From NCBI GenBank assembly GCA_044892525.1, contig CM097886.1, forward strand, positions 85,126,001-85,190,000: DNA of 64,000 nt, in the 5' to 3' direction. Made by a program: the position numbers and the translations under genes. Each line of letters starts with the position of its first letter. The stretch's first letter is position 1. The notes beneath the pieces are model-generated. The model saw only the letters and a list, made by a program, of their open reading frames with translations. It was not told where the DNA came from and did no database searches. The DNA is from Schmidtea polychroa (taxonomy: Eukaryota). Positions 1 through 28,505 of this stretch are shown one piece after another.

Positions 1-1945
1 GCGGATTCAGTAGATAAAAATTAACTCTATATTCTAGATTTTCGATATTAGGTCGACTCACGATAAGACCACTCAATACACTCGATCGACTGCCGCCTTC
101 CTCAATCGACTCATTAGATGACTTTATCAAATTATCAGCCGATTTTCCCCGTCGAAAATTTATCTGGCCCTGGGCAACTAATGATTCTCCTATCGCTATT
201 GATATCTTCACTCGGACTCACGGCAAGTAATTTATTCCCTTATCAAAAAGTTTGTTTACTTTCCCATTTTAGACGAGCCGCTGTCAACGTCAAACCAAAC
301 TTTATCAGATATTCAATGTCAAGCTAAAGTCTAAATTAGTCAATGAATGGGTTTACTCGCTAATGTCCCTGCAATGTACCTCTCGGGATTCAATTTTTAA
401 GTGCTTAGCAGAACTTCCGGTGAAAACTCTAACAATTCATCGTCCATCCCTACTCAGACATCTATCGATATTCAACGGAAAAGCAAATTTTCCTGACAGT
501 AACGAACTACTGATCTCAATCCGAAAAATTGTCTCCGACTTTGGAAAGTTACATTATTTGCTCTGAAACTCCGGCGTGAAAAAAAAAACGAAAGATCCTC
601 TATCAGATCGCGCTCGATGTGAGAAATTCCATTTTCAACAGTATTCCACCTGCGGAGTCTCCTCACCCCTCATGACCCACCCAAGAAGGCAATCATCTCT
701 GCCGCCGTTCTTGCATCGTCATGAGGGACCGTTCGACCCGTTTTCACAAAATCAACATTTAATATACAATTTATGAATAATAAAATGAATGAATGAATCA
801 AATAACAGCAAATGAATCAATAAAAATAAATGAATCAATAAAGCTCACCCGGCGACCCTATCATTTGGACTCCAAGTATGATGTTATTCATTCCACACAA
901 CCGCAGCCTCATCATACCCTTGGTAGATCTCTCATATGATAAATATCCTTCTCTGCAAATATCACATTCTCATTTTCAGCATCTTCGGGATTTCTTATGA
1001 AGGTCAACCTTCCCACTGTCGCGTTCTCTACCGTGGTACATTTCCAACTCGTCCACATCATACTGGGAGCTCTCAGATGGTACAGTCGCCGGCACCATGA
1101 AGAAAAGGCCATTTGTATTTCAATAAATTTATTTTTCGAAATGAGTTTTGTTTTTCATCATTAATAAATTAACCAATACATATAAATCAATCAGCCTACC
1201 GATAGTTTCAAAAACTGGAACGAAATCGAATTTAAACTAAAGGTAAGTTCTGAAAATCTCTGGAATTAGCGTTTGCGATTCTAGTCCTGAATTCGGTGAA
1301 ATATCTGAAGTCTATGCTCTGTAATCGTGAAAAATTAAAAGTGGTTCTAAGTTTTTTCTAAAATTTTACCTGTAATCGTGAAAAATTAAAAGTGGTTGTC
1401 GTCTAATTTTTCACGTTACATATATAGTATTTTTCGTCCAATCAGGACGCTACCTGCTTGTATTTTTACTATTTATTATTATTTTTATGTTTTTTATTAT
1501 AATATATTAGATTTTAATGACTTAACTTATTTCTTATTATTATTTTATTTATTTTCTTATTTTTATTATTTTCCTCCTATTTTTCCTGTAGGTTTATTGC
1601 TACTTTATTGTAATATAATTTTTTGTTTTAATTAGACTTAAAGATAGTTTTATTTTTTATTTATTTCTTAAATTTCTCTTTTATTTGTTGTCACTTTTTT
1701 ACTTATTTTATTCTATTTCATCTGCTGGGTCCTAAATCGCTTTATTTCTAAATCTCAAGGGGTTTATTGGGTTTTATTTAGTTTGTTTTACTTATTCTTA
1801 TTCTCTTATTGATATTTTATTGTTCCTTTTTGATTTATTAGCGAGAATTTGATGGTACTTTATATTTTTATTTTATTTCGTTTATTTTTCAAGGATTACT
1901 TTTCTATTCGCTCCAGTTTTCGAAACTCCACGTTTTAGCCCAACA
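1..1945 (-). repeat. 3' LTR, truncated by the window start
   Basis: Matches 26408-28353; by eye the only difference seen is A10 vs A11 in a homopolymer near 580/26990; ends GCCCAACA on + (TGTTGGGC on -). Confidence 0.95.
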
Positions 1946-2176: not shown

Positions 2177-2803
2177 TCACATGATCTCAAGGTTCGGAAT
2201 GTCTTGGTTGGTTGAATTCTGGGTCGGATGGCTGGTTGAAGTTGTTATCGTGGGGAGCTGGATTGTAACAGGCATTTGGTCAGGAGATAGATTTTGTTGC
2301 ATTTGGTCGGGTGGGTTTGGTTGTTGAAAATGTACTGCTCGTTTATGTTTATTTTTCGATCGTGGGTTCTTTCTTTCGTGTTTTTCGGATAGTGACTGGT
2401 TTCTTCTCCATGTTCGATGAATATCATACGCTTTCCAGATGACTAGTGCGCAGATGATAAGGGTTTCACTGATGGTAGTATAGAGTAAGACTTGGCTTTC
2501 TTTTACTTCCTTCTTCATGATGATTTCCTTCAAGGATTGTTGGGTGGTTTGTTCTTGTAAGAGAATTTCGAGCTGTTCGATTTTTTGGGTTTGTAGGTGG
2601 AGTTGCATTTGAAGTTTTTGCCAGACGGCTTTGTTCCAGCATTGTTTCGGGATGTAGTTGGAGAGCTTTCTTTCGCTTTTTAGTTTGGTTAACGGGTTTT
2701 GCTGTTTCTCGGGATTCTCCCAGAGTGTTGGGATTGGCTGCCACATGGGTATTCCGTTTATCGCTATCATCATTATTGTCACCAGGGTTGCTTCGAACCA
2801 CAT
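2177..2803 (-). CDS. Accessory 208-aa membrane protein (signal, coiled coil, TM, basic tail)
   Basis: MWFEATLVTIMMIAING; LQMQLHLQTQKIEQLEILL; TLIICALVIW; last ORF before the 3' LTR. Confidence 0.72.
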   Translation of the reverse strand: MWFEATLVTIMMIAINGIPMWQPIPTLWENPEKQQNPLTKLKSERKLSNYIPKQCWNKAVWQKLQMQLHLQTQKIEQLEILLQEQTTQQSLKEIIMKKEVKESQVLLYTTISETLIICALVIWKAYDIHRTWRRNQSLSEKHERKNPRSKNKHKRAVHFQQPNPPDQMQQNLSPDQMPVTIQLPTITTSTSHPTQNSTNQDIPNLEIM

Positions 2804-2858
2804 ACTGCTATACGAAAATTTTTATTTACAATTATTTACATTGATCATTCATCTTTAA

Positions 2859-3560
2859 TTATTGCCGGGTTTTCTTTTTACGGGTTTTCTCGGATGTTCT
2901 CATCACTCTCGTTTCTGCTTTTATTACTCGTTTTCTCAATTCGGGTAGTACTTTTAATTGTTTGTCTCTTTCGTCTAACTGTTGCCTTAGGGTTATTATT
3001 TTTTCTTTTAGTGCTTTTATTTCTTGTGTTGCTCTTTCGAGGTTTCTATGGTTCATTATCTGTAGAAAATCATTTTCCCTTTCCCCGTCTTCTTCGTTGT
3101 CTATTTCCTGGTATTTGTTGTTCATTCGTCTCATTATCTCACATTCTTTCTGTTTTTGGTGTAGTTGGAGTTGTAACTCTTTCAGGCTTTCTTGGTGTTT
3201 CCGTGCCTCGGTTTTCCAATAGTCACTAATCACTTCGTCGGCCTTTCGACTGGCCCTCTCCTGCCATAATTCTTCCGCGATCTTTTCCCAATTTCTCCCT
3301 CGCTTTCTTTGCTCGTGAAGCCATTCGTTTTCTTCCTCTACTTCTTTCTTTACTCCTTCTAACAAGATATATTCTCTTTTCAATACTTTAATCATTTTTC
3401 GATTATCTCTCCACCTTTCAACTAATCTTTCGTTTTCCTGTCTCTCTTCTTGTAATTCTTCCTTGATAGTTTTCTTCCTCTCCACTTCATCAACTTCAAT
3501 TTCTCCCTCTTCTAACTCGATTATAGATGTTATGCTGGGTTGTCCGTTTTCAGTGTTCAT
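2859..3560 (-). CDS. Accessory 233-aa coiled-coil protein
   Basis: ATG-initiated ORF, heptads, basic C-terminus. Confidence 0.78.
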   Translation of the reverse strand: MNTENGQPSITSIIELEEGEIEVDEVERKKTIKEELQEERQENERLVERWRDNRKMIKVLKREYILLEGVKKEVEEENEWLHEQRKRGRNWEKIAEELWQERASRKADEVISDYWKTEARKHQESLKELQLQLHQKQKECEIMRRMNNKYQEIDNEEDGERENDFLQIMNHRNLERATQEIKALKEKIITLRQQLDERDKQLKVLPELRKRVIKAETRVMRTSEKTRKKKTRQ

Positions 3561-3742
3561 TTTCTATAATATATACATAATTAATAATTGCGCTACAGTG
3601 CGGCTTATACTTATACATTTATATGTTATTTTATAATCAGGGTTACAGTCCCTTTCATACTTTTACTGTACCATTAATTTTTTTTTTTTTTTGGTTGGGA
3701 TACAGGTCCCGATTTTTATATTTTTTATCTTTCCTCTTATCT

Positions 3743-4780
3743 TTATACAAAGGTCTCTTCCTGGCCTACATATCCCTCATCGCTTTCTACTGACGTTTGT
3801 AATTGGAGTGCGATGGGATCAAATGGGATGTAGTACCGGGGAATCTGCGCTCTAAGTTCTTGCACTTCGTCTCTTAGTGCTCTTGACACGTTAAGTTCCT
3901 CGTCCAACAGGTATGTTAGATACCTGGTTTCATCGTCTCTCACCTCTATCTGTTTTTCTAGCTCTTCCGCTTTTTCGCCGTTTTCCCATTTCTTGATCTC
4001 TATCTCCAGATTTTTAAGATTTTCGTTATACATTTTCCTTTCGTTTTCTAACTTTTTGTTTTTCCCCGCCAGTACCATATTTCTCTGCTCCAGAGCTCCT
4101 TGGTATCCGTTGACATCTCGTTCTAGTTCTGCGACCTTATTCACCAGTTCTACGAGTCGTCCTGACTGTTGAAGTATCAGTTCTTCCATTGCGGCATTCT
4201 CGTGCTCCCTTATGGAGATTTTCATGGCTAGATGTCTTTCAAATTCCATGGCTTTGGTCTGCCATGTTTGGCTTCGGGCCGCAATCTTTCTGAGCCGTTT
4301 CAGTTCTTCTCTTATGACCAGATTTTCCTCCCATTTGCCTTGTTCGCTTTCGTATTCTAATCTCATAGGCAATTCTTTCATTTCTTTTTTCATCTCTTTG
4401 TTCTGCCGCTTCCAGTTTCGGGCTTCTGCCAATAGGTGATTCATTTTCCTTCCTTCCTTTTGTTTTTCTGCTTCTCGTTTTGTGTTTTCGTCCGTCAATC
4501 GTTTCCGTGCTTCCTGCACTAACTGTTTTAAATAGTGGCTGTGCGCTTCTTGGCGAGTGTTTTCCAATGATGCCCACTTAGAGGCTCTTTTGCATGCTTC
4601 TGCTTCGGCTCTTAAATTGTTTACTAACCACTGATATTTGTTATTCTCGTATTCCCTGGCCTCTTCGAGATGGTTGTGGGTCTGGTTCGTCAATTGTAAC
4701 ATTACTTTGACCCATTTTCCCTTATGGATTTTATTGACTTTGGTTTCGTGGTTTGGGGCTTCAGTTCCTTCTTGTGTCAT
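3743..4780 (-). CDS. Accessory 345-aa coiled-coil protein
   Basis: ATG-initiated long ORF, E/K/R/L-rich heptads; no family recognised. Confidence 0.8.
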   Translation of the reverse strand: MTQEGTEAPNHETKVNKIHKGKWVKVMLQLTNQTHNHLEEAREYENNKYQWLVNNLRAEAEACKRASKWASLENTRQEAHSHYLKQLVQEARKRLTDENTKREAEKQKEGRKMNHLLAEARNWKRQNKEMKKEMKELPMRLEYESEQGKWEENLVIREELKRLRKIAARSQTWQTKAMEFERHLAMKISIREHENAAMEELILQQSGRLVELVNKVAELERDVNGYQGALEQRNMVLAGKNKKLENERKMYNENLKNLEIEIKKWENGEKAEELEKQIEVRDDETRYLTYLLDEELNVSRALRDEVQELRAQIPRYYIPFDPIALQLQTSVESDEGYVGQEETFV

Positions 4781-5001
4781 CTTTGTCTAAATAATGATAT
4801 CATTAACTTAACGTTGTACGCTTATATCTGGTTTATTATTTATTTATTTTTATAATTCGTTATAGGAGTTGTTTTAGGAGTTTTTCGCTTAAGTTTACCT
4901 TTGGTAGATTTGGGGGGAATTTTTCTACACTACTATATAATATTTTACTGGATATATACGCCGATATTTACAATTTATTATATACAAAATTATTCGTCTC
5001 A

Positions 5002-6390
5002 CTACTCAGTCCTACTCTTCTCATCTCGCCTCACCGCTATTTTTATGTATATAGTGTCGTTTCTCGTCATGTCTTCTACTTTCCGCTGTAGGATGAAATT
5101 TGGTGCTCCAGTTGCTGGTCCTTCTTCTTCCAAGGGCCTTTGGTAACATACGAGGTTTCCCGCTGTATGGAAACTCTGTTCGTGTATACTTTGATAGTTC
5201 ATCATTGCGAGGTCTATTTTTGCTTTGAATGGCCATTCTATTAACTCGTCGTATGGCCCTTTGCACATCAAGAAGAATACTGAGAAATGCGTTCCGTATG
5301 CACTTCCATCCCCATTGGGGTATGCTTTCATTTTCATTTTATACCCGTTTTTCCATGAGTAGAATGCTGGACTTAGTAATGTTGTATCCTTTCCATTTCT
5401 CGCTCTCTGCATCTTCTCTTTTACTCCCGTTATTTTCCATATGTACGGAGCCGTAGGTATTAATTCGTTGAGGTTTAATTCGCTTACTTTTTGATGTAGT
5501 TCTTTCACCATAATGTTGCTAGTTTCTACTAGGTCTGTCTGTATCTTTGTACTTGTTCTCGCCTCTTCAAATGCTTCCTTTTCTTCCAATAGTTCTTTTA
5601 CCAACGCTTTTAGCGAGACTATTTCTCTTTCTAAGTTTTCGGTTTTCCTTTCGTTTTCCTGTAATACCGTTGACCATATTTCCGCGTGTGTTGATACGTT
5701 TTCTGCTAGATGTTGGGGTAATTCCCCTCGGTGTAATTGTTTCGGACATCCCCATTTTCCTAGCACACACGTTATCTTTTTTCTTTCACACTCTTTTAGG
5801 TGTTGAGCGAGTTTTATTACTCCGGGTTTATCGCATTTGTTGGGGCATTCTCCTCTGAATTCTGCGCACATTTTCTCCTCTTGTATGTTGTGATGTTGAC
5901 TGATTAGTTTCTTCCAGGTGTCGTTTTCTCCGCAATACTCGCATTTCTCTAGTCTTTCTTCACATCGACTTTGATGTTCTGCTTCTTCATTGACTTTAAT
6001 CTCTTCTTGGCAACGTTTGCATTGACTGATTTTATACTCACATTGCTCCATATGTTGCCTCACTTCCCATATCCCTCCTCGCCAATTACATGGGGTGTTT
6101 TTACATCCTAGGTTTGCATTCAACATATCCTTTACAGCTGCTTTATCTTCGTTTGTATCTCCCAAACTTGTTATCATTGTTTCTTTGCATACTGGGCACC
6201 ATTGTGGTCCCTTCTTTATTATCTCCTCTACGCATTCTCTGCACATTCTGCATCCACATCTGGTTTGGTGAGGTTCTCTTAATAAGCTCTTGCATATCCC
6301 ACACGTTACATGGTTGTGTATTCGAATTGTGGTGGACTTTCTGACTTGTTCAACAATTTCTTTGAATTCTTCTCGTTGTCGCTTATCCAT
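5002..6390 (-). CDS. Intronless full-length TRAF-family protein (RING, TRAF zinc fingers, coiled coil, MATH)
   Basis: CGICKSLLREPHQTRCGCRMCREC...CPVC; several CX3-4C..H..C fingers; YIWKI...LSPAFYS..GYKM...YPNGDG..GTHFSVFF...GPYDELIEWPF. Confidence 0.95.
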   Translation of the reverse strand: MDKRQREEFKEIVEQVRKSTTIRIHNHVTCGICKSLLREPHQTRCGCRMCRECVEEIIKKGPQWCPVCKETMITSLGDTNEDKAAVKDMLNANLGCKNTPCNWRGGIWEVRQHMEQCEYKISQCKRCQEEIKVNEEAEHQSRCEERLEKCEYCGENDTWKKLISQHHNIQEEKMCAEFRGECPNKCDKPGVIKLAQHLKECERKKITCVLGKWGCPKQLHRGELPQHLAENVSTHAEIWSTVLQENERKTENLEREIVSLKALVKELLEEKEAFEEARTSTKIQTDLVETSNIMVKELHQKVSELNLNELIPTAPYIWKITGVKEKMQRARNGKDTTLLSPAFYSWKNGYKMKMKAYPNGDGSAYGTHFSVFFLMCKGPYDELIEWPFKAKIDLAMMNYQSIHEQSFHTAGNLVCYQRPLEEEGPATGAPNFILQRKVEDMTRNDTIYIKIAVRRDEKSRTE

Positions 6391-6479
6391 TTCTATAATT
6401 ATATATATACATATATTCGTTACTGGTACAGTTTCGTATTTTTATTTACAGTTATTTACATTGCTATTTTAGGTTATAT

Positions 6480-6839
6480 TTATTGGCTGGAAGAGTCGGC
6501 CTCTTGTCCGCCCTCTTCCCTGTTGGTTAACCATTCTGACCAGTCTTCTATCTCCTCTCGCTCCATCTCTTCCGCGATTCTTATTAACTCCTCTTCTTGC
6601 ACCTGGCTGTATCGTGATATTCGGTCTATCTCTCGCTGCATTTGTTCTATTTTCATTCGTTGGTCTTCGATTATTCTTACATAATTGAAGCCTTTATTTA
6701 AACTTTCGACTAAGCTTCTTTGTACAGCGAGTCCTTGTTCCTGTAAATTCGAAATCACTTGAGTTAACATTGCACATTGTTGTTTCCACATCTCCTCGGT
6801 TGTTGTACTGTGGTTTACTTCCTCGCCTATTCGCTCCAT
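6480..6839 (-). CDS. Accessory coiled-coil protein, about 119 aa from ATG 6839
   Basis: ORF between the polyprotein and TRAF; heptad pattern and acidic tail. Confidence 0.65.
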   Translation of the reverse strand: MERIGEEVNHSTTTEEMWKQQCAMLTQVISNLQEQGLAVQRSLVESLNKGFNYVRIIEDQRMKIEQMQREIDRISRYSQVQEEELIRIAEEMEREEIEDWSEWLTNREEGGQEADSSSQ

Positions 6840-7007
6840 TCTTAATTTATATATACTTTTCAATCCTTATCTAATTTTATTTTCATATTAATTATCCCCA
6901 TCATTATATACTATTGATACCGCGCTTATATAAAAATATAGAATACTGTTATATAAATAAATATTTCATACTTACTTTTTACAATCTATATACAGTCATA
7001 ATCCTTT

Positions 7008-8020
7008 CTATATACGTGAGCTTGGAGGGCGCTGAGCATTCCAGGCCTCCACCCACTGTTCCTGCTTGATATTACTTGGTCGTTTTACACGATGTTGAAA
7101 ATTTCTTATTCTGGCCATTTCTAGTTCTCCGTGATGCCGTCTATCTTTGATTATTTTTATTGTCCCCCCCGTTATGATTAAAAAGGCCCCTGTTATTATT
7201 ATGCCGCTGATCCACATCATCTGTTTTATGCTTATAATTTCCGCTTTTTCCTTGCTCGTTATTGTTGATATTGCTTCTGTGCTTTTTAGATTACCGTCTT
7301 TGCCATTTCCTTTCATCATTCCTCGTATTCTTGCTATTTCCTCGTTCATACCTTCCTTTGCCATTTTTTGTATTTTCTCCATCTCCTCCTCGGATACATA
7401 ATTGTCTTGATGTTTCTCACTGTTTTTCTTGCGTTTTCCTTGCTCATCTTTTTCATCATCGATTTTTCTTTTCTTCCCTCTTTTCCCAGGGTATCGTCGA
7501 CATTCTCTCGCTGTATCTTTTCTCCAGATGCATATTGTGTATTCTTTTGGAGGTTGTTGCTGTATTACATATTGTAGACAGTCTTCACCCGGTCTTAATC
7601 TTGCGATGCAGACTTTGTGTTCTTTTCTTGGCTGGAGTTGCGTTATCACTACCTCACCTCCTTTTCCCAGGTGTACCTCCTTCCCTTTGACTTTCGTTAT
7701 TCTCTTTCCTTCTCGATTTCGGTATGCTTCTTGTATTCTTACTTCCGTTATTGGTTCTGCATCTTCATTTTTTAACACTAGTCTCTGATAAGCTCTAGAC
7801 ATACATCTTCCTAATATACACCTTTCTTTTAAATCCCATTCTTCTTTTAGATCCCATTGCTGCTCTTGTACTTGTTTTTTCTTTTCTTGTTTTAGTTCTT
7901 CCTCTTTGTTGTCCTTATTTTCCGTTTCTTTGGCTTCTTTTATCGTTCTCATTCCTCCCTGGGCTGTTATCATTTCCACCATTGTTAGTACGAGTATCAT
8001 TATCATCATATTTGTCTCCA
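7008..8020 (-). other. C-terminal type I membrane protein (signal-like segment, Cys-containing FN3-like ectodomain, TM, short tail)
   Basis: MMIMILVLTMVEMITAQG; VVITQLQPRKEHKVCIA; WISGIIITGAFLIITGGTI. Confidence 0.55.
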
Positions 8021-11000
8021 TTTCTTTGTTGGTAAAAAGTAGGCATACCCTCTGTTTTCCACTATTCGTCTTTTCTTCTTGCTTTATTCGGTTTCTCGGG
8101 TTATTTTCCTCTTTTTTCCTACTCGCGTCGTTATTTTCTTGATTATTCTCCTCTGATTTCTCTTTCTCTTTATTCCCGTTTCGACCTTTTTCATTATTAT
8201 CGTCGTCTTTATCGTCTTTATCGTCTTTATCTCCCCCGCTATCGTTTAAAATGTCGTCCTCGACATTTATATCATTCAACAATCTGCGGTATGCCGTTAG
8301 CACTCTGTTTCTTGCTAATTTTGCTTCGAGTTCGAACTCCTTTCTGCCTGTTGCTACATGTCTCTTTCTATTCCATTCTTTCACTAATTCTCTTAATTGT
8401 ATCCGACGATGTTTCCCGATTCGCTTTTGTTCGTTTAGATTCTGCGTGAATTTGAGATCTTCCCTGTTTAATACGATCATTATGATTTTCGGAGTTCCTC
8501 CTTTTGTTAGTGTATTTTTAACCATAGCATTTTCTCCGTTTTCGTAGAACTCATTTATATTTATTGCATATTTATTGCTTTGTGGTATTCTCCATGTTAG
8601 CAGCAACTTCATGGCTTCTAAGTTCATCCGTATCGTGTTCCATTGGAACTGTGACGTGTTTTTACAGATATTTTCTACCTCAGTTCTTGTAGCATTTTTA
8701 CAAATGAATCTAATCATTTCCAAGTTTGGTTGTATTGTTGCCCAATCCATGGTAGAATTTCCTTCGTTTGATCTTTCGTCAAGTCTCGAACCTGATTGAT
8801 GTAGTATATGTAATGTTTTCGGGTGTATATTTGTTATGGCTGCATACATCATTGCTGTTTCCCCTTGTTCATTTTTTGCATTAGATTCTTCTCCGAAGTC
8901 TCTGAGAATTCTTATGATGGTTATTGCTCTGTTCTCTTTTGCTGCTAAAATGGCTTGTTGTAATGGTGTTCTTGAGTCTTTTGTTGGTAAGGTGAATGCT
9001 AGTGGTATAAATGTTTTTATTTTTCCTATGTCTAGATTTGTGGTCTGATCTCTTGCGTAGGTGTGTACTGTTTTGGTTATTTTTGCTAGTATCGCTTCAT
9101 CGGATAGATCTTGCATTTCTTCAAAGAATACTTCTTTAGCCTTACGTACTACTATCTCTTGGTCGGAGTTTATTGTCTTTGGTTTACTTATTGTTGCTAT
9201 ATCGGTTATTGGTTGATCGACTTGTTCCTCAGACTCTCTTGCTTTTACTTTCTTCATTTTTATCTTTTTCTTGTTCGAACTGTTAATGCGTTCCTCTGCC
9301 GTTAGAACTTGAATAATACTTAGGTAGTTTTCTCGAATGTTGTTCATAGTTTCCATCATATGTAAAACACTCACGGTGTCCCAAAATTTTACTTGTACTT
9401 TATCGGTAAATTGAGATATAGCTTTTTCGAAGTTGGTAATTCGTTTTCTGATTAGTTGTTCGTCTTTGTGATTTGAGAATTTTATGCCACGTTGTAGTAG
9501 TTGATTTGGAATTTCGAATAGGTGATGTCCTCTCATCGCTTCTCTCATCAAGGTGTTTTCTCCTTTGGTAAATGTTTCGTTTATATCTACCATATAGTCG
9601 TTTTTTATCGGGTTCCTCCATGCAATTAGTATTCCAGTAATTGTTGTTAATTTCTCTTTGATTGCAGTTAATAGCCCGTCATACATGTTTCCTATCTCTC
9701 TATTATCCTCGTATGATATTAGATCTACTAAGATTATGAAGGCTTCCGTACTTTTCCCTTCGATTGCATGATGTAATGCATTTTTCTGGTTGTGATCTTG
9801 TGTGGTTATCTTTGACCCAGTTTCAAGTAATGCGATGATAATATCTCTAGCTTTATCCCGATTGGCTGCTATCATTAGTGGAGTGTAACCTTGGTTGTTT
9901 TCTTGATCTGTCGAAATGTTACAATCGCGAAATGCTTCAATTGTTTCTAATATCTGTTCGTTACTACCCACCTTTAAAAGCTTGTGCAGGGGTGTGTCTC
10001 CGTAATGGTCTGTGATCGTGAATAATATAGGCCATTGACTTTTAACTACCCTGAGCAATGGGTGTGTTCTTTCTCGGTTTGCATAATTTTCGATCATTGT
10101 TAGCAGACCTCCCAATATCTCAAAATCTAATCTGTCTTCTGCCCATCCGGGCATTTTAACTTTTACTTCCTTTATGATTTTCTCGGCTTCTGATGGTTGT
10201 AACCCTAATCGATTACCTGTTGGTTCGTTTATTTGCTGTAACATGTTTATTCTATACGTTTGTGATCTTGTCGTTAGTGTACGTCCTTCTGGCTGACTGG
10301 TGGCGGTTTTCGGAATTGGCTTACATCGTGCAACATTTACGTATATTGGTCTTGTAAAAGGGTTGTTCACTAATCGTACTCTTACATTAGTTTCTCCGAC
10401 GAATAGAATCTCATACGGCCCTTTACCGTTTCGTTGTAATTTTTTGGTGGTTCCTGGAATTAATTCTGGTGTTTCAATCATCACCCAATCGCTTGTTTGA
10501 AACGTATGCTGTTTGACGTTTTTCTTTCTATCATGTAACTCTTTGTAACTTTCTTGATAAAATTTTATATTCAATCCTGCGGTTTCCCAGATTTCCTGCA
10601 TTCTTTCCTTGAACTTAGTTACATAATCGTCTATTTCCATGTATTGTGATATCGGTGGCTGATATTCTAAATCCATTGGCATATTGCATTCTCTGCCGTA
10701 CATCAACTTGAACGGACTCATCTTTGTGGACGCGTGAATCGACATTCTGTAAGCCATTAGACATAATTTTATATATTCATCCCAGTCTCGTTGATGACGA
10801 TCGACATAATTTGATAACATTTGAATCAGTGTTCCATTGAATCTTTCTGTCATACCATTAGTTTGTGGATGGTACGGTGATGTTCTTAATTTTGCGATCT
10901 TGAAGTAGTTGGTGGGGAATTTTGTCAAATAATCTGTGATTACCAATATATATATATTTCCTCTATCTGATTCTGGTAGTGGACCGACTACGTCCATTGA

Positions 11001-14000
11001 TATCATTGTCATTGGTTCTGCTGGCACTGGCATTGGCTTTAATGGTGCCTTCCATTTTGTTCCCGTGTTTTTTCTGGTTGCGCAAGTTATGCAATTTTTC
11101 ACCCATTCCGTTACATCCTCGGTCAATGTAGGCCAAAAATATTTTTGTTTCATTCGTGCCAACGTCTTTTTAGATGACATATGTCCTCCGAGTCTTCCGT
11201 CATGGTATTGTGTTAGTAGATCTTTACGTCTATTCTCGGGAATGCACATCAGTCTTTTCTCGCCATCCATTATCAATAACCAATCTTTCTCGATAATATA
11301 TCGATGTCGATGTTTATCCATATGCTCCTTCAATTTTTGATCTTTCCCATATACCTCTGCTTTCCCTGTTTTCACATATTCAATGATTTGCTTCAACTCT
11401 GTATCCTCTTGTTGGTCTTTCCGTAATTGGCAAAAATCTAAATCTTCTGCTACCATCAGACATATTCGTTGCATTTCGTGATCTACTAAATCCGGAAAGA
11501 TAAATCTGGACATACAATCCGCATTGGCATTCGCTCTTCCCGCTTTGAATTTTATGAACGGTGAATATTCTTGTAACTGCATTGCCCATCGCATCAATCT
11601 ACTTGAAGCTTCTTTGTGTTGACCAAGCCATACTAATGGTTGATGATCCGTGGTGATACATATTTCGTGTCCCCATAACAAATATCGAAAATGTTTAATT
11701 GCTTGTATGATTGCTAACGCTTCTCTCTCGGTTACGGAATAGTTTTTCTCATGCTTTTTAAACGTTCTACTGTAGTATCCAATCACTCTTTCTTTTCCTT
11801 CTTCGTCGAGTTGTCCCAATATTGCTCCGGCTGCATATCCACTTGCATCTGTTGCTAATAAGAACGGTTTCTTGAAATCAGGATGTACTAGTATTGGGGC
11901 TTCGATTAATTTATCTCGCAATGTCTCAAACGCTTTTTGTTGTTCTGCACCCCAAATAAATGAAATATCCTTTTTCACTAATTCCTGTATTGGTTTCGCA
12001 ATACCTGCATAGTTTTTGATGAATTTTCGATAATATCCGCATAGTCCGAGAAATTCTTGAACTTGGGTGACAGTTTTTGGTGCTGGACATGTTTTTATTT
12101 TTTCTAGGTTTCTTGGATCTGGTTCTTTGCCTTTTGCTGACACTATGTGTCCTAAGAACGTAACTTTTTCTTTTGCCCAATCACATTTGGATGGTTTAAG
12201 TTTCAGTTTCCATTGTCGTAATCGAACGAACACATTTCTGATATCTTCCAAATGTTGTTCGAATGTTGCTGAATATATTAATAAATCATCAATATATACC
12301 ATACACTGCTTGATCCCGTGTGTGACAAAATTCATACATCTCTGGAATGATGCTGGGGCATTGGTCAGTCCGAACGGCATTTTCCTGAATTGGTATAGAT
12401 CTCGGCCCAATGTGAATGCTGTTTTCTCTCTCTCTTCCTCCTTGACTTTGATCTGCCAATATCCACTTTTTAGATCTAAAGATGTAAAATATGCGGCCCC
12501 CTGTAACATAAGTAACATCTCATTGATGTCTGGTAACGGGTATGTGTCTCTTTTTGTTACTGCATTTAATTTCCGATAATCGATACAGAATCTCTGAGTA
12601 CCGTCTTTTTTCTTCACCATGACTACTGGAAATTGCCATGGCGAACAACTTGGTTCGATCACTTGTGCATCTAGCATTTTTTGTACTTCGGCTTCGGCTA
12701 TCTCTTTTTGCTTCTCTGCTAGTTTGTATGGACGTAGTGCGATTGGAGTTTCGTCTATTAATGGTATTGCGTGTAATGTAACATCGCATGCTCCCAAATC
12801 TAAGTCCGAAATTGCGAATATATCTTTATATTCTATCAATAATTGTTGAAGTCTCTCCTTTTCTTTTTCCGTTAGCAAGGTGCTATCAATTATCCATAAT
12901 TCGTCCGCTTTCGTTGTTTCGTTGGTGATTTTTGGTAATTCGATGTCTATCATGGGTGTCAATCTACCCAATCTTTCATTTTCATATATGATCTTGTCTT
13001 CTTCCTCGAAATTTGTGATGTTAATTGGTATTTCCCCGTCTTCATTTATTGTTATTATTTCTCTTGCTAATGGTAATTCTCGTCGTTTTTCGAATGATTT
13101 GCTTGGCTCAAAAATGACTTCTCCTTCCATTCCTGCATCCACTTTTATTTGACATATCATCTGTGATTTTGCGGGTACAATTATTTTCTCCGGACATCTA
13201 ATTATTGCGTTCATCTTGCATATTCTACCCATTTTGTCTTTTAGACACATTGTTGTTAAATCGATTACTACTTCCTTAAACAATTCCGGCATTAAATCCG
13301 TTCCGATTATACATGGTTCACTCAGTTTGGGTATCACCGCTAGATACGTTTCAATTTCGTTATCCTGATATCGTAACGTAGTCCACCATCTTCCTACTAC
13401 GTCGACGGTTTCTTTACTGCATGCAATAATATGGATAGTTGTTTGTTCGATATCTTTCCAACATTTACTGGGTATTTGGTTTATTGCTATTGCTGATACG
13501 TTTGCTCCGGTATCTATCATTGCGCTTGTCTCTTTCCCGTTGATTTGGATCATGACTGTTACTGCCGCACCTCCTGGTGAACTCATCACTGCTATCGTTC
13601 TTACGTCGTCCGCTTGGTCTACACTTTTCGTTCTTCGGGTCGGCATATAGTTCATCCCTGGTTGACTTGGTAACTGTGGATACATATTTTGTGTCATGGT
13701 CAAAGCTGTTTGTTGTCCAACGATATCTGGTGGTACGTAACTTCCGTTGGCTATCCAGGTATTTGTTTTTTCTTTCTCCCAATATGGTGCTGTTTCTATT
13801 GGCTTTTCATTCGGGTTTCTACTTGGATATGGGTATTTGTCATTCCCGTTGTCGTCATCATCACTATCGCTGCTGTTTGATCGATTCCTAAATCTGTCTA
13901 AGAATTTTGGTTTGTTCTTTTTCAGTTGCGTCCTTGTTGCTTCATCATACATTGTTTTCCGAAATCGTCTACCGACTTCCTCGTCAGTTCCTTTTATTTT

Positions 14001-17000
14001 TGTCAGTATTTTGATCAATCGTTTTATTCTGTGTATGTCTTTAGAATGACCGTGCAACACCATTGTTTTTGCCAAAAATGGTAGAAAGCCTACTATCAAT
14101 TTCCAATTTACCTTCTTTTCTCTCTTATAGATATCAAAACACGCTAACATTTGAGTTAATATTACTCTGACAATCTGGATAATAAGAATGATTCCCAATA
14201 TTCCTGCCATCATTTGACCGAATACTAGAAATCTTCCCCACATTGCTTTCATCATGTTTGACGTGGCTTGTTGAAAATGATCAGGTGACAATAATAGTTC
14301 GTAATTGGGGCCTGACTGGAAATTCGTTCCCCCAGTTATGGTAACCATATTCGATAGAATGGATTCCCGTCTTGCTGGGAATAATACGTTTAATCGTGCC
14401 GTTTCTAAATCCTCTGGTGAGTACATACCTGCTTTTGACACATCAATTGGTTTGAAATCTTGTTCTGTTGCGAGTTCTATTAGTCCAAACTTTTTAGGCT
14501 CTTGTACTTCGGTTTTTACTGGTAACATTATCCATTTCCCATCGGGTTTTTCGTATAACGGTCCGTATGCATTTGAACAGTTAAAGGTATTCGGGTAAAA
14601 TCCAATTGGGTTCATTATCCTAGTGACGGGTTGAACGAATCTGTTTCGCCCCTTGTAACTAATTTCTAACTCGTTTGCACATTTCCCTGGTGGAATTGTG
14701 GGCTTTCTTGGCAGTCGCGCAAATGTCTTGGTACATGCATACGTATACATTACCTCTCCCACCATTCTACCAAAATGTCCATCCGGTAACGGGAGTGATG
14801 GCATTGTGTTATCTGGGTGTGTTATTGCGATGGCTAATTTTGTTTTTAGTATCTCTTTATTCAATGAACAGTCATTTTGTATAAGATCGTAATACACTTT
14901 TTGCATTGTCGTTTGTCCTCGGTGGAACAAGAAGTCCATCTTATTATTGGCATACAGGTACAATTTTACGTCCTCTGTTGCTACCTTTCCCACTGCTCGG
15001 TCTATTACTTGCCTTGACATGTAGATACCTGCGTAGTTCGTCCGGTATACTATACTGTCACATTTGGTGGTCTCTTTTTCTCTAATGAATCTCATGCCGA
15101 TATCTGGGTCATCTGTAATTAATGCCGTTGGTGTTTTTTGGGTTGTGAGTCTCTTTTCTTTGGGGGATGGCGGAACTGGTTTCCCATTTCGCATCCTTAC
15201 GTTTCCATTCTCTTCATCGTCGTCCTCGTTTTCGTAAATTTCTCCTTTTACTTCATTGAATAGAGCACTTTTTAACAATTGGAGTCGGCATTTTTGGGTG
15301 TTAGCTTCATATATTATAGTCGAAATTCCCGTTCTACACACGTTTTCCGTAGCTCTGCATGCTGGGTTGGTTTTCATTTGATAGTTGTTCGCGTCGAATT
15401 GTGCTTCGTATTCCTTCAACTCTACTGTGTAGGACTCAATTACTACCACTCCTGATATCACCTCTCCTCTGATCGTATATGTGCCTCCGTTACATGATCC
15501 ATCAGTTGATTTTACTCGTCCGGCTACATAGATACTTTCCGTCTTGATCATTCCGCTTTGTCCGTGTATTGTTACTCCATCCCTGATTCTCATCGCTCCG
15601 GTTCTAAAAAGCTCTTTACAGTCTTCCCGTTGTATAGGTACTATTTCTTTATCTAATCCAGGTAATATGAGGGTTGAATATGAGTATTGTCCACAGTAAT
15701 ATGCCAACACTTTCTTCGATACTACGCATTCTCTAGCTTGCGTTCTAATGAAATCTGATTCTTGGTATACGTGATAGGAGACTTTCTTCTTTACTATATC
15801 TAATTTATTCGGAGACGCCTGTCTACATTCCTCTATATCTCTCAGGGAGTATCTTTCTCCTATTATCGAATTGTCACAGTCGTAAATAGTAAATCCCGCG
15901 GCTCCACTGGTGCAGAGCATCCATATCATCATGGTCATCATTAGTGAATTAATCGACGCTTTTCTGCTGGCTGGGTCTTTCAATGGCAATTCCCATTCTA
16001 GCTCGTTTAGTAACTTCTTCAACCGAATTTGCATTGATCTCTCTTGCTCGTTTTTTCGTGGCGCTTGTATGAGTCTTTTCCACCCACCGGCGCGGATAAT
16101 ATGTGGTTCGATTGTATTTTCAATGATTGTGACGGTCATTTCTACATGATTTGCGAATTGTTTGTTAGGTATTTTCCTTGCTGCTAATCCCATCAAATTG
16201 TACATTAGATACGTTAATACTACTAAATGATGTTCGTCGTCGTTTGCGTTTAAAGTTAATTGTTCAATCACTCTTCTTGTCTCTTCCCAATCGGTTTTAG
16301 TGGTTTTTGTCTTCTCTTTGATTAATTTCGGAATTATTCCGGATATTGTATTCCATAGTTGTCTGGCGTCTACGCTTGCTACTTTTCGTTGCCATAACCG
16401 TCGCAATTGTGGGTTCGTTATTATTAGCATATCTTTTACTAGCTCTCGTATCCATTTTTCGCCTCTTTCGATAGTTGGCTGGGCCTCCTTTAGATCCCAC
16501 ACTATTTTATCCAGTTTCTCTAATCTGACTTGTCCTTGTTCTTGTTTCAGTTGTTCTCTAGTTTTAAATTCCGGTTTTTCTCCTTGCTTCTTGGGTCTCC
16601 CTTTTGCCCGTTTTTCCATCATTGTTCCGGCTTCCCTTGTATTTTCATAATTCGGGTTTCTCTCGTTATCCGTTCTTGGCAATGAGCTATCGTTGTTTCT
16701 CAGCCATTCGTTCCATTCGTCTATTATTTTGTCCGTTTGACCTTCTGGTGTTGCTTTCGTTGGTCCTTTCTGTCGTTGGAATTGTTCGTCGGTTTCGGTT
16801 TCTGTTGTATTATCGATAATCTCCTCGATACTCAGCTTATTTGGCTGCTGATAGCTAGTTGACGGTTGGCTTGTTGTCCATATTTCGGCTCCTGTCGGCC
16901 ATCTTACCAGGATTGGTGATCTTTCTCCAGCTCCTTCATCGCTGTCTTCCAATATAATTTCCTCGATTTCCTCGGTTTCATTCGTTTTACTTGCCACTTT

Positions 17001-21974: not shown

Positions 21975-22660
21975 CTTTACGACTGGCTGGCACTTTTCAA
22001 CAGCTCAATCTTCTTCTCCTGACCGGTTGGACTATTCAACAACTCGATCTTACGACTGGCTGGCACTATTCAACAGCTCAATCTTCTTCATCTCCGAACT
22101 GGCTGGACTTTTCACAGCTCAGTTTTAATTTTTCCTGGCCGGCTGGACTTTTCCAACAGCTCGGCCTTAATATCTCCGACTGGCTGGACTTTTCACAGCT
22201 CAGTTTTAATTTTTCCTGACCGGCTGGACTTTTCAACAGCTCGGCCTTAATATCTCCGACTGGCTGGACTTTTCACAGCTCAGTTTTAATTTTTCCTGAC
22301 CGGCTGGACTTTTCAACAGCTCGGCCTTAATATCTCCGACTGGCTGGACTTTTCACAGCTCAGTTTCAATTTCCCTGACCGGCTGGACTTTTCAACAGCT
22401 CGGCCTTAATATCTCCGACTGGCTGGACTTTTCACAGCTCAGTTTTAATTTTTCCTGACCGGCTGGACTTTTCAACAGCTCGGCCTTAATATCTCCGACT
22501 GGCTGGACTTTTCACAGCTCAGTTTTAATTTTTCCTGACCGGCTGGACTTTTCAACAGCTCGGCCTTAATATCTCCGACTGGCTGGACTTTTCACAGCTC
22601 AGTTTCAATTTTTCCTGACCGGCTGGACTTTTCAACAGCTCGGCCTCAATATCTCTAAAC
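21975..22660. repeat. 80-bp tandem array (about 7 clean units plus degenerate copies), each unit made of two ~40-bp halves
   Basis: ATCTCCGAC recurs at 22172, 22252, 22332, 22411, 22491, 22571; core GGCTGGACTTTTCA(A)CAGCTC alternates with two fixed linkers. Confidence 0.95.
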
Positions 22661-23232: not shown

Positions 23233-23712
23233 CTAACTGAAGTAGATGGTGTGCTTCTCTTTTATTACACATGTGCACATAGAACAACGGATTAAACCGG
23301 CGGCGCATTCGTCACAATGGCTAAGGTGCCCACAAGGTAGAATCAGAATTTTGACAGGTCGCATCTTGCAACTGTTACAAGTTCTCAAGGCCGCTGCTTT
23401 CTCTACTATTGATGTTCGTATCCGCTGAGACAGAGTTTTGACTCGTTCGCGTAACCTCACATATTCGATGTTCAGAGCGGGGTCGTCGAGACGTTGCTGA
23501 AACCATTGGTAATGAATAGACAAGTCGGTATCGGTATTTGTTGATCCTAATCTGTCGGTTAGAAAGTTTTGTTTGGATATCAGCGGTGCGTTGTGGCTTT
23601 GTTGTTCTAGCAGTTCTATTTGTTTCAGTTTTTCTCTTAATGTTTTTATTGAATCATTTTCTATTTCGATGAACCGGCTTAGCTGTTGTAGATGTTGTCT
23701 AGCGTCTGACAT
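23233..23712 (-). CDS. 159-aa coiled-coil plus IAP-type C-terminal RING protein (no BIR)
   Basis: CNSCKMRPVKILILPCGHLSHCDECAAGLIRCSMCTCVIKEKHTIYFS* has the IAP/MGRN-type RING spacing and terminal xxFS. Confidence 0.85.
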   Translation of the reverse strand: MSDARQHLQQLSRFIEIENDSIKTLREKLKQIELLEQQSHNAPLISKQNFLTDRLGSTNTDTDLSIHYQWFQQRLDDPALNIEYVRLRERVKTLSQRIRTSIVEKAAALRTCNSCKMRPVKILILPCGHLSHCDECAAGLIRCSMCTCVIKEKHTIYFS

Positions 23713-24163: not shown

Positions 24164-24181
24164 ATCCCGGCTGAGCCCCCA
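24164..24181 (-). promoter_or_regulatory. Primer-binding site, tRNA-Pro type
   Basis: Plus strand ATCCCGGCTGAGCCCCCA matches the vertebrate tRNA-Pro 3' end ATCCCGGACGAGCCCCCA at 16/18; lies 7 nt inside the inferred LTR end. Confidence 0.8.
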
Positions 24182-24724
24182 AAAATCATGTTGGCGTATG
24201 TGGGGGAAAAGAAAATATATAGGCATGATTATCATACACATCAGGTATCATTATTCTACTCAGACCATTCCCTCACACACTCCAAATGATCATTCGCATA
24301 TTCCCACGTATGAGCCCGTGGTGATGTTCCACGTTGGTACTGCTCACACGGGTTGGAAAGAGTTAGCAGGTGAGCCCCTGCCTTAGGACTACTCCTAACC
24401 CTTTCTCGGTTCGGGTTCTACGGTGCCTTAGAAGGTCTTACCCATTCTTTACGCATCATTCGGTCCGACCCTGGTCCAAAAGGTACGACATTTAAGTTTC
24501 TACTATATATTCATGATCCTTCTCTCATGCAATTCAACCGTAGCAAATCATACATACAATTAACACAATCAAAGAAAATCGAACAGTTATATTAGAACGG
24601 AACATCAAACTACATTCAGCATTGTTTAAATAAATACAAAACATTAAAGATTAGTCACGAGATAACGTCGCTTCTTCAAGTTCGTTCGTAATAGCAGGGG
24701 AATCGAGACCCGAGAGAGAATTGG

Positions 24725-25489
24725 CTACGAAAATGCTTCTCCTTCTGCGAGCATCTCGTCGATGTCAACGGGCAACCGGCGGTCTTCGAGGAATTTGATA
24801 CTGTCGGCCGGAACTACCCGGAATACTTCCTTTGTAGGGATGGAATGGGTAACTGTAATTTCCTTGATAGTCGATTTGGCTGCAGATAACGATGCTTCAA
24901 GCGCGGCCATGGCATTTCTCCGCTTCTGATTTTTTTCCGAACGCGTCAGCCGCTTACGCTTTCGATGGGGGAGTGTAGCTTCTGCTGGGGGCTGAATGAG
25001 GTGTGGCACGAGTACTGGAGCCAAGATAGGGTCCGATGAACCGCCAGCCATAGGTCGATAGCCCGAAAGAACTGGGGCGGGAATTGGCGGCATTTGTGGG
25101 CCATGCCCTTTACAACTGGATGTTGATGAGGTTTCAGCTAATTTGTGGTGCATTGGGAACACGTTAGTCCCATCTTGTATCGGGTACTCGCGAACTCGCT
25201 TTGCTAGTTCTGATTCGGAATACACCTTGTGCAGTGCCTCTGATTGGGCCTTTATGGTTAGCCTCTGGCACCTGCTTTCTTCCAGGAGACTGTCACGGCA
25301 GTGCTCCAAACGCAGAATCTTGCTCTTCTCCTCCTTCATTTGTGGTGGGGAGAACCACGTTCCCTCATAGAGGTCAATTCTCTTCTTCAATTCCCCGATG
25401 TACAAGTGGAGCTGTGCGATATCGGCATTTTTATCAGCACAGGAAAAGCAAGGTCTGAGGGTTTTCCCGGAACTGGTTGAGGTATTCAT
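24725..25489 (-). CDS. LTR-encoded 254-aa protein: CxxC plus coiled coil, Pro-rich segment, basic NLS-like stretch
   Basis: ATG-initiated ORF preceded by TTAACAATTTAG; PCFSC then heptads; HRKRKRLTRSEKNQKRR; no family recognised. Confidence 0.72.
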   Translation of the reverse strand: MNTSTSSGKTLRPCFSCADKNADIAQLHLYIGELKKRIDLYEGTWFSPPQMKEEKSKILRLEHCRDSLLEESRCQRLTIKAQSEALHKVYSESELAKRVREYPIQDGTNVFPMHHKLAETSSTSSCKGHGPQMPPIPAPVLSGYRPMAGGSSDPILAPVLVPHLIQPPAEATLPHRKRKRLTRSEKNQKRRNAMAALEASLSAAKSTIKEITVTHSIPTKEVFRVVPADSIKFLEDRRLPVDIDEMLAEGEAFS

Positions 25490-27775
25490 CTAAATTGTTA
25501 AGAAATTTTCATTTTTAAATTAAGAAATTCACTGGGGTATTATTCATATTTTCGGAAAACGGAATTTAAGATCTTCCGACCAAGTTATCCAAGAGTGGCC
25601 TACCAATCTACCCCGTCGGCAAATTCTCACCTCCATGCACTCTCAAACATCCAAACTAACCCATGTAATCATTACTACTTTATGAGAAGAAAACGGGCTT
25701 CATGAAAATAATTCATTATGCTAGCTTTTAGGTTTACTTTATGGGTTTGACTATTTTTAACTACTGCATGACTGTTAATTCGTTACTATGAACGCTATTA
25801 TCTTAATTATCGTTGTTATATTTTAACAATTATATTTTACTCATTTTGCTGCTACGTCATTAAATTCTACGCGTGCTGTATGATGAACGGAAAATCGGCA
25901 ATCACCGGGACACCCCGTCTTGTATGTAGACCCCTCGGGTTTGTAAGAAAATCATAATACTCTCGCCTAAATTTTTATCATGGATTATAACTTAGTTATT
26001 TCAAATTTAACGCCATAAACATCGTCATAGCGACGCTTAAATCGGGCGCAGTTATGTGTTCATTTGATTATCTATCTCTACCATCAACTATCGACGGGTT
26101 CGTTACGATGCATGTTGGTGCATTTAACTAGCGACTTGCACACTGACGGAAAAGAAGATTCTCGTCGCACTGCCATTTTCTCTGACGCAATCTAGTGGTC
26201 TACTAGCAGATACAAGTTTACGACTCTCTCCCTATGGTTAGGTAATAATGATATCCACATGTGCACTGTGACCTAATCTGAGTGTGATGCGTGTGTACAT
26301 GTGGGCGAGCGATTAATAGAGGTAGAGTTGTAGATAGATGCTCCAGTCGAGACGGACACTCAGTTGGGGTGTTCAGAACTCAAGAAACTCGATTGTGTGA
26401 GTGACTTGCGGATTCAGTAGATAAAAATTAACTCTATATTCTAGATTTTCGATATTAGGTCGACTCACGATAAGACCACTCAATACACTCGATCGACTGC
26501 CGCCTTCCTCAATCGACTCATTAGATGACTTTATCAAATTATCAGCCGATTTTCCCCGTCGAAAATTTATCTGGCCCTGGGCAACTAATGATTCTCCTAT
26601 CGCTATTGATATCTTCACTCGGACTCACGGCAAGTAATTTATTCCCTTATCAAAAAGTTTGTTTACTTTCCCATTTTAGACGAGCCGCTGTCAACGTCAA
26701 ACCAAACTTTATCAGATATTCAATGTCAAGCTAAAGTCTAAATTAGTCAATGAATGGGTTTACTCGCTAATGTCCCTGCAATGTACCTCTCGGGATTCAA
26801 TTTTTAAGTGCTTAGCAGAACTTCCGGTGAAAACTCTAACAATTCATCGTCCATCCCTACTCAGACATCTATCGATATTCAACGGAAAAGCAAATTTTCC
26901 TGACAGTAACGAACTACTGATCTCAATCCGAAAAATTGTCTCCGACTTTGGAAAGTTACATTATTTGCTCTGAAACTCCGGCGTGAAAAAAAAAAACGAA
27001 AGATCCTCTATCAGATCGCGCTCGATGTGAGAAATTCCATTTTCAACAGTATTCCACCTGCGGAGTCTCCTCACCCCTCATGACCCACCCAAGAAGGCAA
27101 TCATCTCTGCCGCCGTTCTTGCATCGTCATGAGGGACCGTTCGACCCGTTTTCACAAAATCAACATTTAATATACAATTTATGAATAATAAAATGAATGA
27201 ATGAATCAAATAACAGCAAATGAATCAATAAAAATAAATGAATCAATAAAGCTCACCCGGCGACCCTATCATTTGGACTCCAAGTATGATGTTATTCATT
27301 CCACACAACCGCAGCCTCATCATACCCTTGGTAGATCTCTCATATGATAAATATCCTTCTCTGCAAATATCACATTCTCATTTTCAGCATCTTCGGGATT
27401 TCTTATGAAGGTCAACCTTCCCACTGTCGCGTTCTCTACCGTGGTACATTTCCAACTCGTCCACATCATACTGGGAGCTCTCAGATGGTACAGTCGCCGG
27501 CACCATGAAGAAAAGGCCATTTGTATTTCAATAAATTTATTTTTCGAAATGAGTTTTGTTTTTCATCATTAATAAATTAACCAATACATATAAATCAATC
27601 AGCCTACCGATAGTTTCAAAAACTGGAACGAAATCGAATTTAAACTAAAGGTAAGTTCTGAAAATCTCTGGAATTAGCGTTTGCGATTCTAGTCCTGAAT
27701 TCGGTGAAATATCTGAAGTCTATGCTCTGTAATCGTGAAAAATTAAAAGTGGTTCTAAGTTTTTTCTAAAATTTT

Positions 27776-27850
27776 ACCTGTAATCGTGAAAAATTAAAAG
27801 TGGTTGTCGTCTAATTTTTCACGTTACATATATAGTATTTTTCGTCCAAT
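27776..27850 (-). promoter_or_regulatory. Candidate LTR promoter (inverted CCAAT, TATA) followed by a short leader and 5' splice donor
   Basis: ATTGG at 27846-27850, TATATAT at 27828-27834, CAG|GTAAAA with GT at 27777-27776; same at 1368-1442 in the 3' LTR. Confidence 0.45.
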
Positions 27851-28505
27851 CAGGACGCTACCTGCTTGTATTTTTACTATTTATTATTATTTTTATGTTT
27901 TTTATTATAATATATTAGATTTTAATGACTTAACTTATTTCTTATTATTATTTTATTTATTTTCTTATTTTTATTATTTTCCTCCTATTTTTCCTGTAGG
28001 TTTATTGCTACTTTATTGTAATATAATTTTTTGTTTTAATTAGACTTAAAGATAGTTTTATTTTTTATTTATTTCTTAAATTTCTCTTTTATTTGTTGTC
28101 ACTTTTTTACTTATTTTATTCTATTTCATCTGCTGGGTCCTAAATCGCTTTATTTCTAAATCTCAAGGGGTTTATTGGGTTTTATTTAGTTTGTTTTACT
28201 TATTCTTATTCTCTTATTGATATTTTATTGTTCCTTTTTGATTTATTAGCGAGAATTTGATGGTACTTTATATTTTTATTTTATTTCGTTTATTTTTCAA
28301 GGATTACTTTTCTATTCGCTCCAGTTTTCGAAACTCCACGTTTTAGCCCAACAAAATCAAGAAATAATACTCAAAGACCGGAATGAAGAGTGTATTGTAT
28401 ACACGAAGAAGATGACGATAGATCAGAAGAATTGATAGAACCAGTCATGCATAATGTTGAGAGAAAAAAACCCCAAGAAGACCCGGTTGTTTACATTTTG
28501 TCAGT

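Follow-up and report, generated by a model that had tools for sequence, protein, structure and literature searches.

Why does a planarian retroelement carry a complete TRAF gene, where did this gene come from, and does it matter to the element or to its host? These questions are raised by a stretch of 64,000 nucleotides from Schmidtea polychroa, referred to here as the window. An earlier note had described in it an intact, intronless TRAF 3′ of pol and had proposed a retro-captured host gene acting as a signalling decoy or modulator. The features of the element are listed by their positions in the window; its own family is called W, and W2 and B are sister families.

1..1945, minus strand: 3′ LTR (4164 bases, 2219 of them before the window start)
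2177..2803, minus strand: 208-aa accessory ORF without convincing Pfam match
2859..3560, minus strand: 233-aa accessory ORF without Pfam match
3743..4780, minus strand: 345-aa accessory ORF without Pfam match, with a homologue in W2 and B and under purifying selection
5002..6390, minus strand: full-length TRAF accessory gene (462 aa, single stop-free ORF)
5032..5445, minus strand: MATH domain (TRAF-C) of the TRAF, residues 316-453, with L-V-C in place of the serine triad
5461..5673, minus strand: predicted coiled coil (TRAF-N), about residues 240-310, from alignment to the TRAF3 chain and heptad count
5788..6105, minus strand: four TRAF-type zinc fingers, residues 96-201, from the ligand pattern
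6187..6303, minus strand: RING, residues 30-68, from Pfam PF00097 and alignment to the TRAF6 RING
6391..6479, minus strand: AT-rich spacer of 89 bases with tandem TGTAAATA/AATAAA and, two bases ahead of the TRAF start, a TAG
6480..6839, minus strand: 119-aa accessory ORF upstream of the TRAF; its homologue in family B, in the corresponding position, is an ORF of 151 aa
7008..20747, minus strand: polyprotein of 4579 aa (gag-env-pol plus ankyrin repeats)
21977..22655, no strand assigned: tandem repeats of about 80 bases in the leader, from the repeat pattern
23233..23712, minus strand: upstream accessory ORF of 159 aa that encodes an IAP-type RING
24164..24181, minus strand: primer-binding site, 7 bases from the LTR, which we take to be tRNA-Pro-like
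24189..28353, minus strand: 5′ LTR (4165 bases, TG...CA ends, 4-base target duplication AAAT)
24725-25489: 254-aa ORF within the 5′ LTR, without Pfam match

The RING, the zinc fingers and the MATH domain are indeed intact, as the ORF, Pfam and the finger pattern bear out. In Pfam the RING matched PF00097 with 22.6 bits (cut-off 21) and the MATH domain matched PF21355 (E 2.8e-25) and PF22486 (E 2.2e-25); a zf-TRAF_2 match at residues 167-230 (E 0.0015) stayed under the cut-off. Four complete C-x-C-x-H-x-C fingers are formed by residues 96-117, 124-143, 150-175 and 182-201. The coiled coil is predicted from the alignment of the TRAF3 coiled coil and MATH chain, which starts at residue 244 (E 1.7e-28), and from a modest heptad pattern. 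Among solved structures, the coiled coil and the MATH domain were best matched by TRAF3 and TRAF2 (E 1e-27 for the MATH domain), the RING and the fingers by TRAF6 and TRAF5. The RING has the sequence CGCRMC and can be aligned, free of gaps, to that of TRAF6 (CGHRFC), whose spacing it shares; it has eight Cys ligands, with Cys47 in place of the His of the C3HC4 pattern. Of 58 distinct family W copies, 57 or all 58 retain the ligand at each of the 26 zinc-binding positions. No antisense ORF of at least 100 aa covers the gene body within the window, and a homologue search by words returned distant proteins only (17 matches, 23-29% identity).

Together with the neighbouring stretch, the window holds an element of 30,572 bases. 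Its LTRs differ by four one-base indels and 0 substitutions, so the insertion is young. The polyprotein comprises Gag, CCHC knuckles, a weak Bcl-2-like region, a fusion glycoprotein of the Monjiviricetes type and the protease, RT, RNase H and integrase domains, and it ends in ankyrin repeats. Its env lies in frame, after gag and ahead of PR-RT-RH-IN. The match of the Bcl-2-like region is weak (E 0.13), and a comparison with solved structures gave none. A MATH remnant was searched for in the window polyprotein and is absent, and Pfam detected no BIR domain among the ORFs of the window copy. The TRAF starts 618 bases 3′ of the polyprotein stop, with one ORF of 119 aa in between. As matched by the published description of its layout, the element is a Burro-type Gypsy: Burro elements likewise exceed 30 kb, have multi-kb LTRs and a polyprotein of about 4600-5100 aa in which gag and pol are separated by env, and contain ankyrin repeats, tandem repeats and accessory ORFs (PMC6431247).

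Some further observations concern the element and its surroundings. The integrase core of the window copy is shortened in frame by 47 residues relative to two other copies (at about 10890-10900, near polyprotein residue 3283), despite the nearly identical LTRs. The 345-aa ORF (3743-4780) occurs as two very different alleles, with saturated dS, among copies with close TRAF genes, suggesting that subfamilies have recombined just 3′ of the TRAF. Elsewhere in the window lie a host BRR2/SNRNP200 helicase gene (32057-38438, minus strand; two very long frames of 728 and 1207 aa), a small DNA transposon (47062-48048) with inverted repeats of 89 bases and an IS1595/ISXO2-like transposase fragment (226 aa), a Gypsy pol fragment (28850-29323), transposase-like fragments (42710-43666) and a 17-base tandem repeat (63652-63750). 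Pfam gave no match for an ORF of 236 aa (59597-60307, plus strand), whose His and Cys motifs may resemble those of a permuted papain-like enzyme.

The TRAF is a fixed gene of the element, found at a constant place in three families, and not a peculiarity of the window copy, which the earlier note had named as a refuting outcome. Family W has 110 copies by exact 18-mer (control: 0), and a protein search scored 92 loci with 91-100% identity. We examined 90 family W copies: 70 of the 92 scored loci (the 30 best and, bar two, the 40 lowest-ranked) and 20 of the 21 loci missed by the protein search among 100 18-mer matches listed. The 119-aa ORF precedes the TRAF in all of the 70, both flanks are intact in 68 of them, and in each of the 20 further copies the polyprotein end adjoins the TRAF. 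Sixty-five of the 90 are open, 15 frameshifted, 7 stopped and 3 truncated; that 25 are broken is what selection on replicating lineages would predict. Families W2 and B carry their TRAF at the same place, 3′ of pol. The W2 protein is 69% identical to that of family W (at least 92 scored loci; element context in 10 of 10 checked), that of family B 33% (at least 91 scored loci; element neighbours in 12 of 12). Over the three families this gives at least 293 element TRAF loci, some of them on small contigs and possibly assembly duplicates. Among the W, W2 and B copies examined, none lies outside element context. Family B (for example at G000:C1:21526001-21566000) has, in addition to the full TRAF 3′ of pol, a second MATH domain inside its polyprotein and, immediately after the TRAF, an IAP-like BIR-RING gene of 392 aa.

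The gene is kept by strong purifying selection. In 65 of 89 family W copies, those with dS of at least 0.05, dN/dS against the window copy was 0.06-0.15 (median 0.10) up to a dS of 0.76; with the window copy as common reference, these values are not independent of one another. The 24 closer copies had a mean dN of 0.006 and a mean dS of 0.033. The 20 copies missed by the protein search, and thus selected irrespective of protein score, had values of 0.06-0.19, so the signal was not made by the search. Among the 58 distinct copies, variants common to at least four copies had a pN/pS of 0.13 (RING 0.07, fingers 0.15, coil 0.21, MATH 0.09), compared with 0.28 for private variants (Fisher p 3e-4). 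For the sister families, dN/dS was 0.13-0.18 (12 copies of family B) and 0.15-0.24 (9 copies of W2); between the W and W2 TRAFs synonymous sites are saturated. Constraint on the TRAF equals or exceeds that on the polyprotein end. Neutral evolution, which the earlier note had named as one way in which its reading could fail, does not agree with dN/dS values across copies, broken ones included. Purifying selection tells that the protein matters and is silent on what it does.

The origin of the gene was approached by comparison with the TRAFs of the host. A TRAF family search gave 1551 candidates, of which 150 were scored; frame length and match span sort these into 56 host, 13 polyprotein MATH, 80 family B and 1 W2. 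Of the roughly 56 host-type loci, 33 were checked by sequence. The Cys of the RING, taken at first as an oddity of the element TRAF, turned out to be ordinary: CGC[RK] is present in all 26 distinct host RINGs that the motif matched, and the RING of Dendrocoelum lacteum TRAF-2 is also of the Cys type. In 168 proteins the RING was of the Cys type in 21 and of the His type in 74, with 73 giving no motif match. In nine host TRAFs a single frame covers everything from RING to MATH, and in 18 the gene is divided between two frames. As both traits occur among host TRAFs, neither the Cys RING nor intronlessness is special to the element; we reject the CGC RING as element-specific and intronlessness as proof of retro-capture. 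The probable capture from a host TRAF has other grounds, namely the nesting of the element TRAFs within those of planarians. They form one clade in the quick tree of full-length sequences (SH-aLRT 99) and in the tree of RING and fingers (98/98; without three rows that lack the RING), and one clade with the polyprotein MATH domains in the MATH tree (98/94; without five host rows missed by the cutting motif). This clade sits within the planarian TRAF clade with supports of 95/90 and 100/98. A single clade inside the planarian TRAFs suggests one old capture, and from these trees it is likely that the TRAF was captured once, from a planarian host TRAF. Two alternatives passed AU tests on 156 MATH columns without being rejected: family W placed together with the host cluster genes (p 0.119), and an independent capture of the MATH domain in the polyprotein (p 0.274). 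None of the three trees singles out a sister group of the element clade among host TRAFs, or a donor lineage. Four unnamed database proteins fall into the element clade, none of them close to sequences of this genome (best 37%, P0021), so the gene is probably present in elements of other planarian data sets.

Host TRAFs also occur in dispersed clusters at about 105-124 Mb and 1-5 Mb of G000:C2, with dozens of closely related two-frame genes. These form a clade of their own (99/95 in the RING-finger tree), with a strongly altered MATH groove.

Candidate signals for expression of the accessory genes lie in the spacers. The accessory ORFs stand head to tail at 2177-7007 and 23233-25489, separated by 55-220 bases of AT-rich sequence with TGTAAATA/AATAAA and, immediately ahead of the start codon, an acceptor-like YAG. 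The window copy has TGTAAATA five times in its internal region, always on the sense strand and always in a spacer. The spacer in front of the TRAF contains a candidate poly(A) signal and a candidate splice acceptor. Of 16 accessory ORFs in families W and B, 12 have TAG or CAG within 6 bases before the start codon, compared with 2.7 after shuffling; 0 of 20,000 shuffles were as high, for a pattern picked after the data had been seen. Before the 345-aa ORF the site is TTTAG or TTCAG, depending on the copy. The YAG enrichment and the spacer signals point to sub-genomic mRNAs generated by cis- or trans-splicing, and the accessory ORFs may form an operon-like array that is resolved by splicing or by spliced-leader trans-splicing. 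Internal promoters are a possible alternative source of accessory mRNAs. Among the matches listed for contigs of four public runs over positions 4400-24350, no joints or loose ends were seen at candidate acceptors, and coverage by the best-covered putative RNA run was as even as that of DNA.

Hints at the activity of the protein come from residues with known roles in vertebrate TRAFs. The receptor-binding hot spots of TRAF2 include a serine triad (PMC6125299). TRAF2 F410, L432, F447, F456, R393 and Y395 align to F, L, F, Y, K and Y of the element TRAF, so that hot spots 1 and 3, hydrophobic and polar, are largely kept, whereas the serine-triad hot spot is lost: S453-S454-S455 align to L413-V414-C415, and L-V-C is found in 56-58 of 58 distinct family W copies. 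The P-D before the triad is lost as well; most single-frame host TRAFs, like the polyprotein MATH, retain P-D and the first Ser. The peptide groove (beta6-beta7) is remodelled in all element 3′ TRAFs. In TRAF6, the exchange I72D/L74R stops binding of Ubc13, R125 and R146 are required for activity, and TRAF RINGs form heterodimers (PMC5702613). The element RING half keeps I72 and R88 and has Lys at R125; in the window TRAF, L74 corresponds to K34 and R146 to W108, and in W2 L74 is replaced by Glu. The family B TRAF keeps basic residues at the R125 and R146 equivalents, and in host planarian TRAFs the residues matching L74 and R146 are highly variable, which makes weak ligase activity uncertain and a hint only. 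With the serine triad and two catalytic residues of TRAF6 changed, a re-targeted modulator appears likelier than a normal ligase.

We therefore consider it probable, as judged from residues and gene context, that the element TRAF is a re-targeted modulator which mixes or competes with host TRAFs in death and innate-immune signalling of cells with an active element. The common ancestor of the families would have captured a host TRAF, and a second MATH domain would later have entered the polyprotein of family B. The protein would be translated separately, from a sub-genomic RNA that is opened at the acceptor-like AG in front of the start codon, would trimerise via coiled coil and MATH domain and could then mix or compete with host TRAFs, with a client range changed by loss of the receptor-binding serine triad. 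On its own the family W TRAF would have little TRAF6-like K63 ligase activity, its RING being kept for dimer contacts or for another E2. The net effect might be survival, or a muted response, of the cell in which the element transposes. The apoptosis-type company of the gene counts for a modulator, namely the IAP-type RING and the weak Bcl-2-like region of the window element and the BIR-RING gene of family B. RNAi of host planarian TRAFs leads to more cell death (PMC7586133), TBK1 restricts expression of foreign nucleic acid and induces TRAFs (PMC13563047), and SMEDWI-3 piRNAs degrade many traf mRNAs (PMC6824462), which may be linked to element TRAFs. BURRO1 is expressed after smedwi-2 RNAi, and knocking it down by RNAi left the smedwi-2 phenotype no better (PMC8532177), so that no strong effect of Burro on cell fate is apparent there. 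A bolder version, which we regard as speculative, is a virus-like anti-death cassette in Burro. A re-targeted TRAF, an IAP and a Bcl-2-like protein would be encoded in an operon-like 3′ array cut at acceptors, possibly by spliced-leader trans-splicing, and a selfish TRAF-IAP complex would keep transposing stem or germ cells alive.

After the re-targeted modulator, our order of preference is an element-internal adaptor and then an active amplifier. The TRAF could serve the element as an adaptor or ubiquitin ligase in particle assembly, budding or turnover of polyprotein products, and not act against host signalling. The groove that is remodelled in all element 3′ TRAFs could mean element-encoded clients, the RING is strongly conserved, and the element has an env-like gene. 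However, to our knowledge ordinary Gypsy elements need no TRAF, and the gene travels with apoptosis-type genes. RT-RNase H of W2 and B is 97% and 90% identical to that of the window, compared with 69% and 33% for the TRAF; a protein that diverges so much faster fits better with a host-facing role, and we consider the internal one rather doubtful. It is less likely still that the TRAF is a working E3 driving pro-survival, proliferative or pro-death signalling, for which iridovirus ORF111L, acting via TRADD and caspase 8, is a precedent (PMC3352826). All domains are intact, the RING has TRAF6-like spacing and the I72, R88 and R125 equivalents are kept or, for the last, basic (Lys), but L74 and R146 are replaced by Lys and Trp in family W, L74 by Glu in W2, and the serine triad is lost.

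Two further explanations were considered. Selection could act at host level, with the copies as extra host TRAF genes and the element as vehicle of the planarian TRAF expansion. The at least 293 element loci indeed outnumber the roughly 56 host-type loci, and the AU test permits a link of family W to host cluster genes. Yet no host locus examined in the three trees is nested in the element clade, no copy was found away from its element, and single insertions decay; we consider this explanation very improbable. The suggestion of the earlier note that element-borne copies account for part of the TRAF expansion is weakly supported: copies exceed host genes, but the roughly 56 host MATH loci among the 150 scored stand in clades of their own. 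The host expansion is mostly separate, and the element is rejected as its main source. A recently captured passenger without function is the least credible reading of all. The broken copies (25 of 90) would fit, though such decay is normal after insertion, and dN/dS near 0.1 up to a dS of 0.76, retention across families down to 33% identity and the conserved zinc ligands speak against it. The selection data reject a neutral passenger unless overlapping constraint mimics selection.

Burro1 (GYPSM1) and Burro2-4 of Schmidtea mediterranea and a Burro-like element of Dugesia tigrina have been described (Jurka 2007 and Grohme et al. 2018, via PMC6431247). MATH_TRAF_C, BIR and BCL2-like motifs are already listed in Burro, and interference with apoptosis and ubiquitination has been proposed (PMC6431247). 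In the published elements, as far as the text compared describes them, a MATH_TRAF_C domain only is found, in the polyprotein (Burro1) or in an upstream accessory ORF (D. tigrina). The window element, in contrast, has a whole RING-to-MATH TRAF as a separate gene 3′ of pol. The family W polyprotein lacks a MATH domain, whereas family B has both the polyprotein MATH and the TRAF gene and resembles Burro1, by layout only. The parts of PMC6431247 used here give no TRAF copy numbers, selection or phylogeny. Likewise, a full-length element TRAF, its selection or its origin did not appear in the portions compared of the literature on Burro, planarian TRAFs and captured retrotransposon TRAFs; the ORF may already appear in Grohme et al. 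2018 or in Fig. 2A of PMC6431247. The parts compared of PMC11410931 make no mention of TRAF, and those of PMC8797187 hold nothing pertinent. Thus MATH_TRAF_C in Burro is already known, and a full-length, separate TRAF under selection is apparently new.

A viral parallel is ORF111L of ISKNV and other megalocytiviruses, likewise a TRAF of host origin that sits on a mobile genome, combines a RING with coiled coil and MATH domain and is closest to the TRAFs of its host group (PMC3352826). ORF111L belongs to a large DNA virus, has 296 aa, binds TRADD and promotes apoptosis, while the element TRAF belongs to an LTR retroelement, has 462 aa with four fingers and is present in hundreds of genomic copies. 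With host planarian TRAFs (Dendrocoelum lacteum TRAF-2; Smed-TRAF-1/2 and -2A/B, PMC7586133) it shares domain order, the Cys-for-His RING and the clade, but search scores and trees set the element TRAFs apart as a distinct sub-clade with 25-33% identity to host genes and a remodelled beta6-beta7 groove. Vertebrate TRAF2/3/5/6 differ by the His ligand; the serine triad and the TRAF6 residues L74 and R146 are absent from the element TRAF. For S. mediterranea 121 MATH domains have been reported, in the text compared without a link to Burro (PMC6109357); 99 MATH transcripts of this species have been published.

Until now the host-signalling cargo of Burro consisted of domain matches and guesses. 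One such cargo is a whole TRAF gene under strong purifying selection in at least three families and about 300 loci, which opens such guesses to RNAi tests in planarians. Retroelements rarely retain an immune-signalling gene as large DNA viruses do, and this is one that does. TRAF counts from unmasked genomes would be inflated by element copies, and planarian TRAF counts, RNAi targets and 'genic' targets of piRNAs need to be checked against the element-borne copies.
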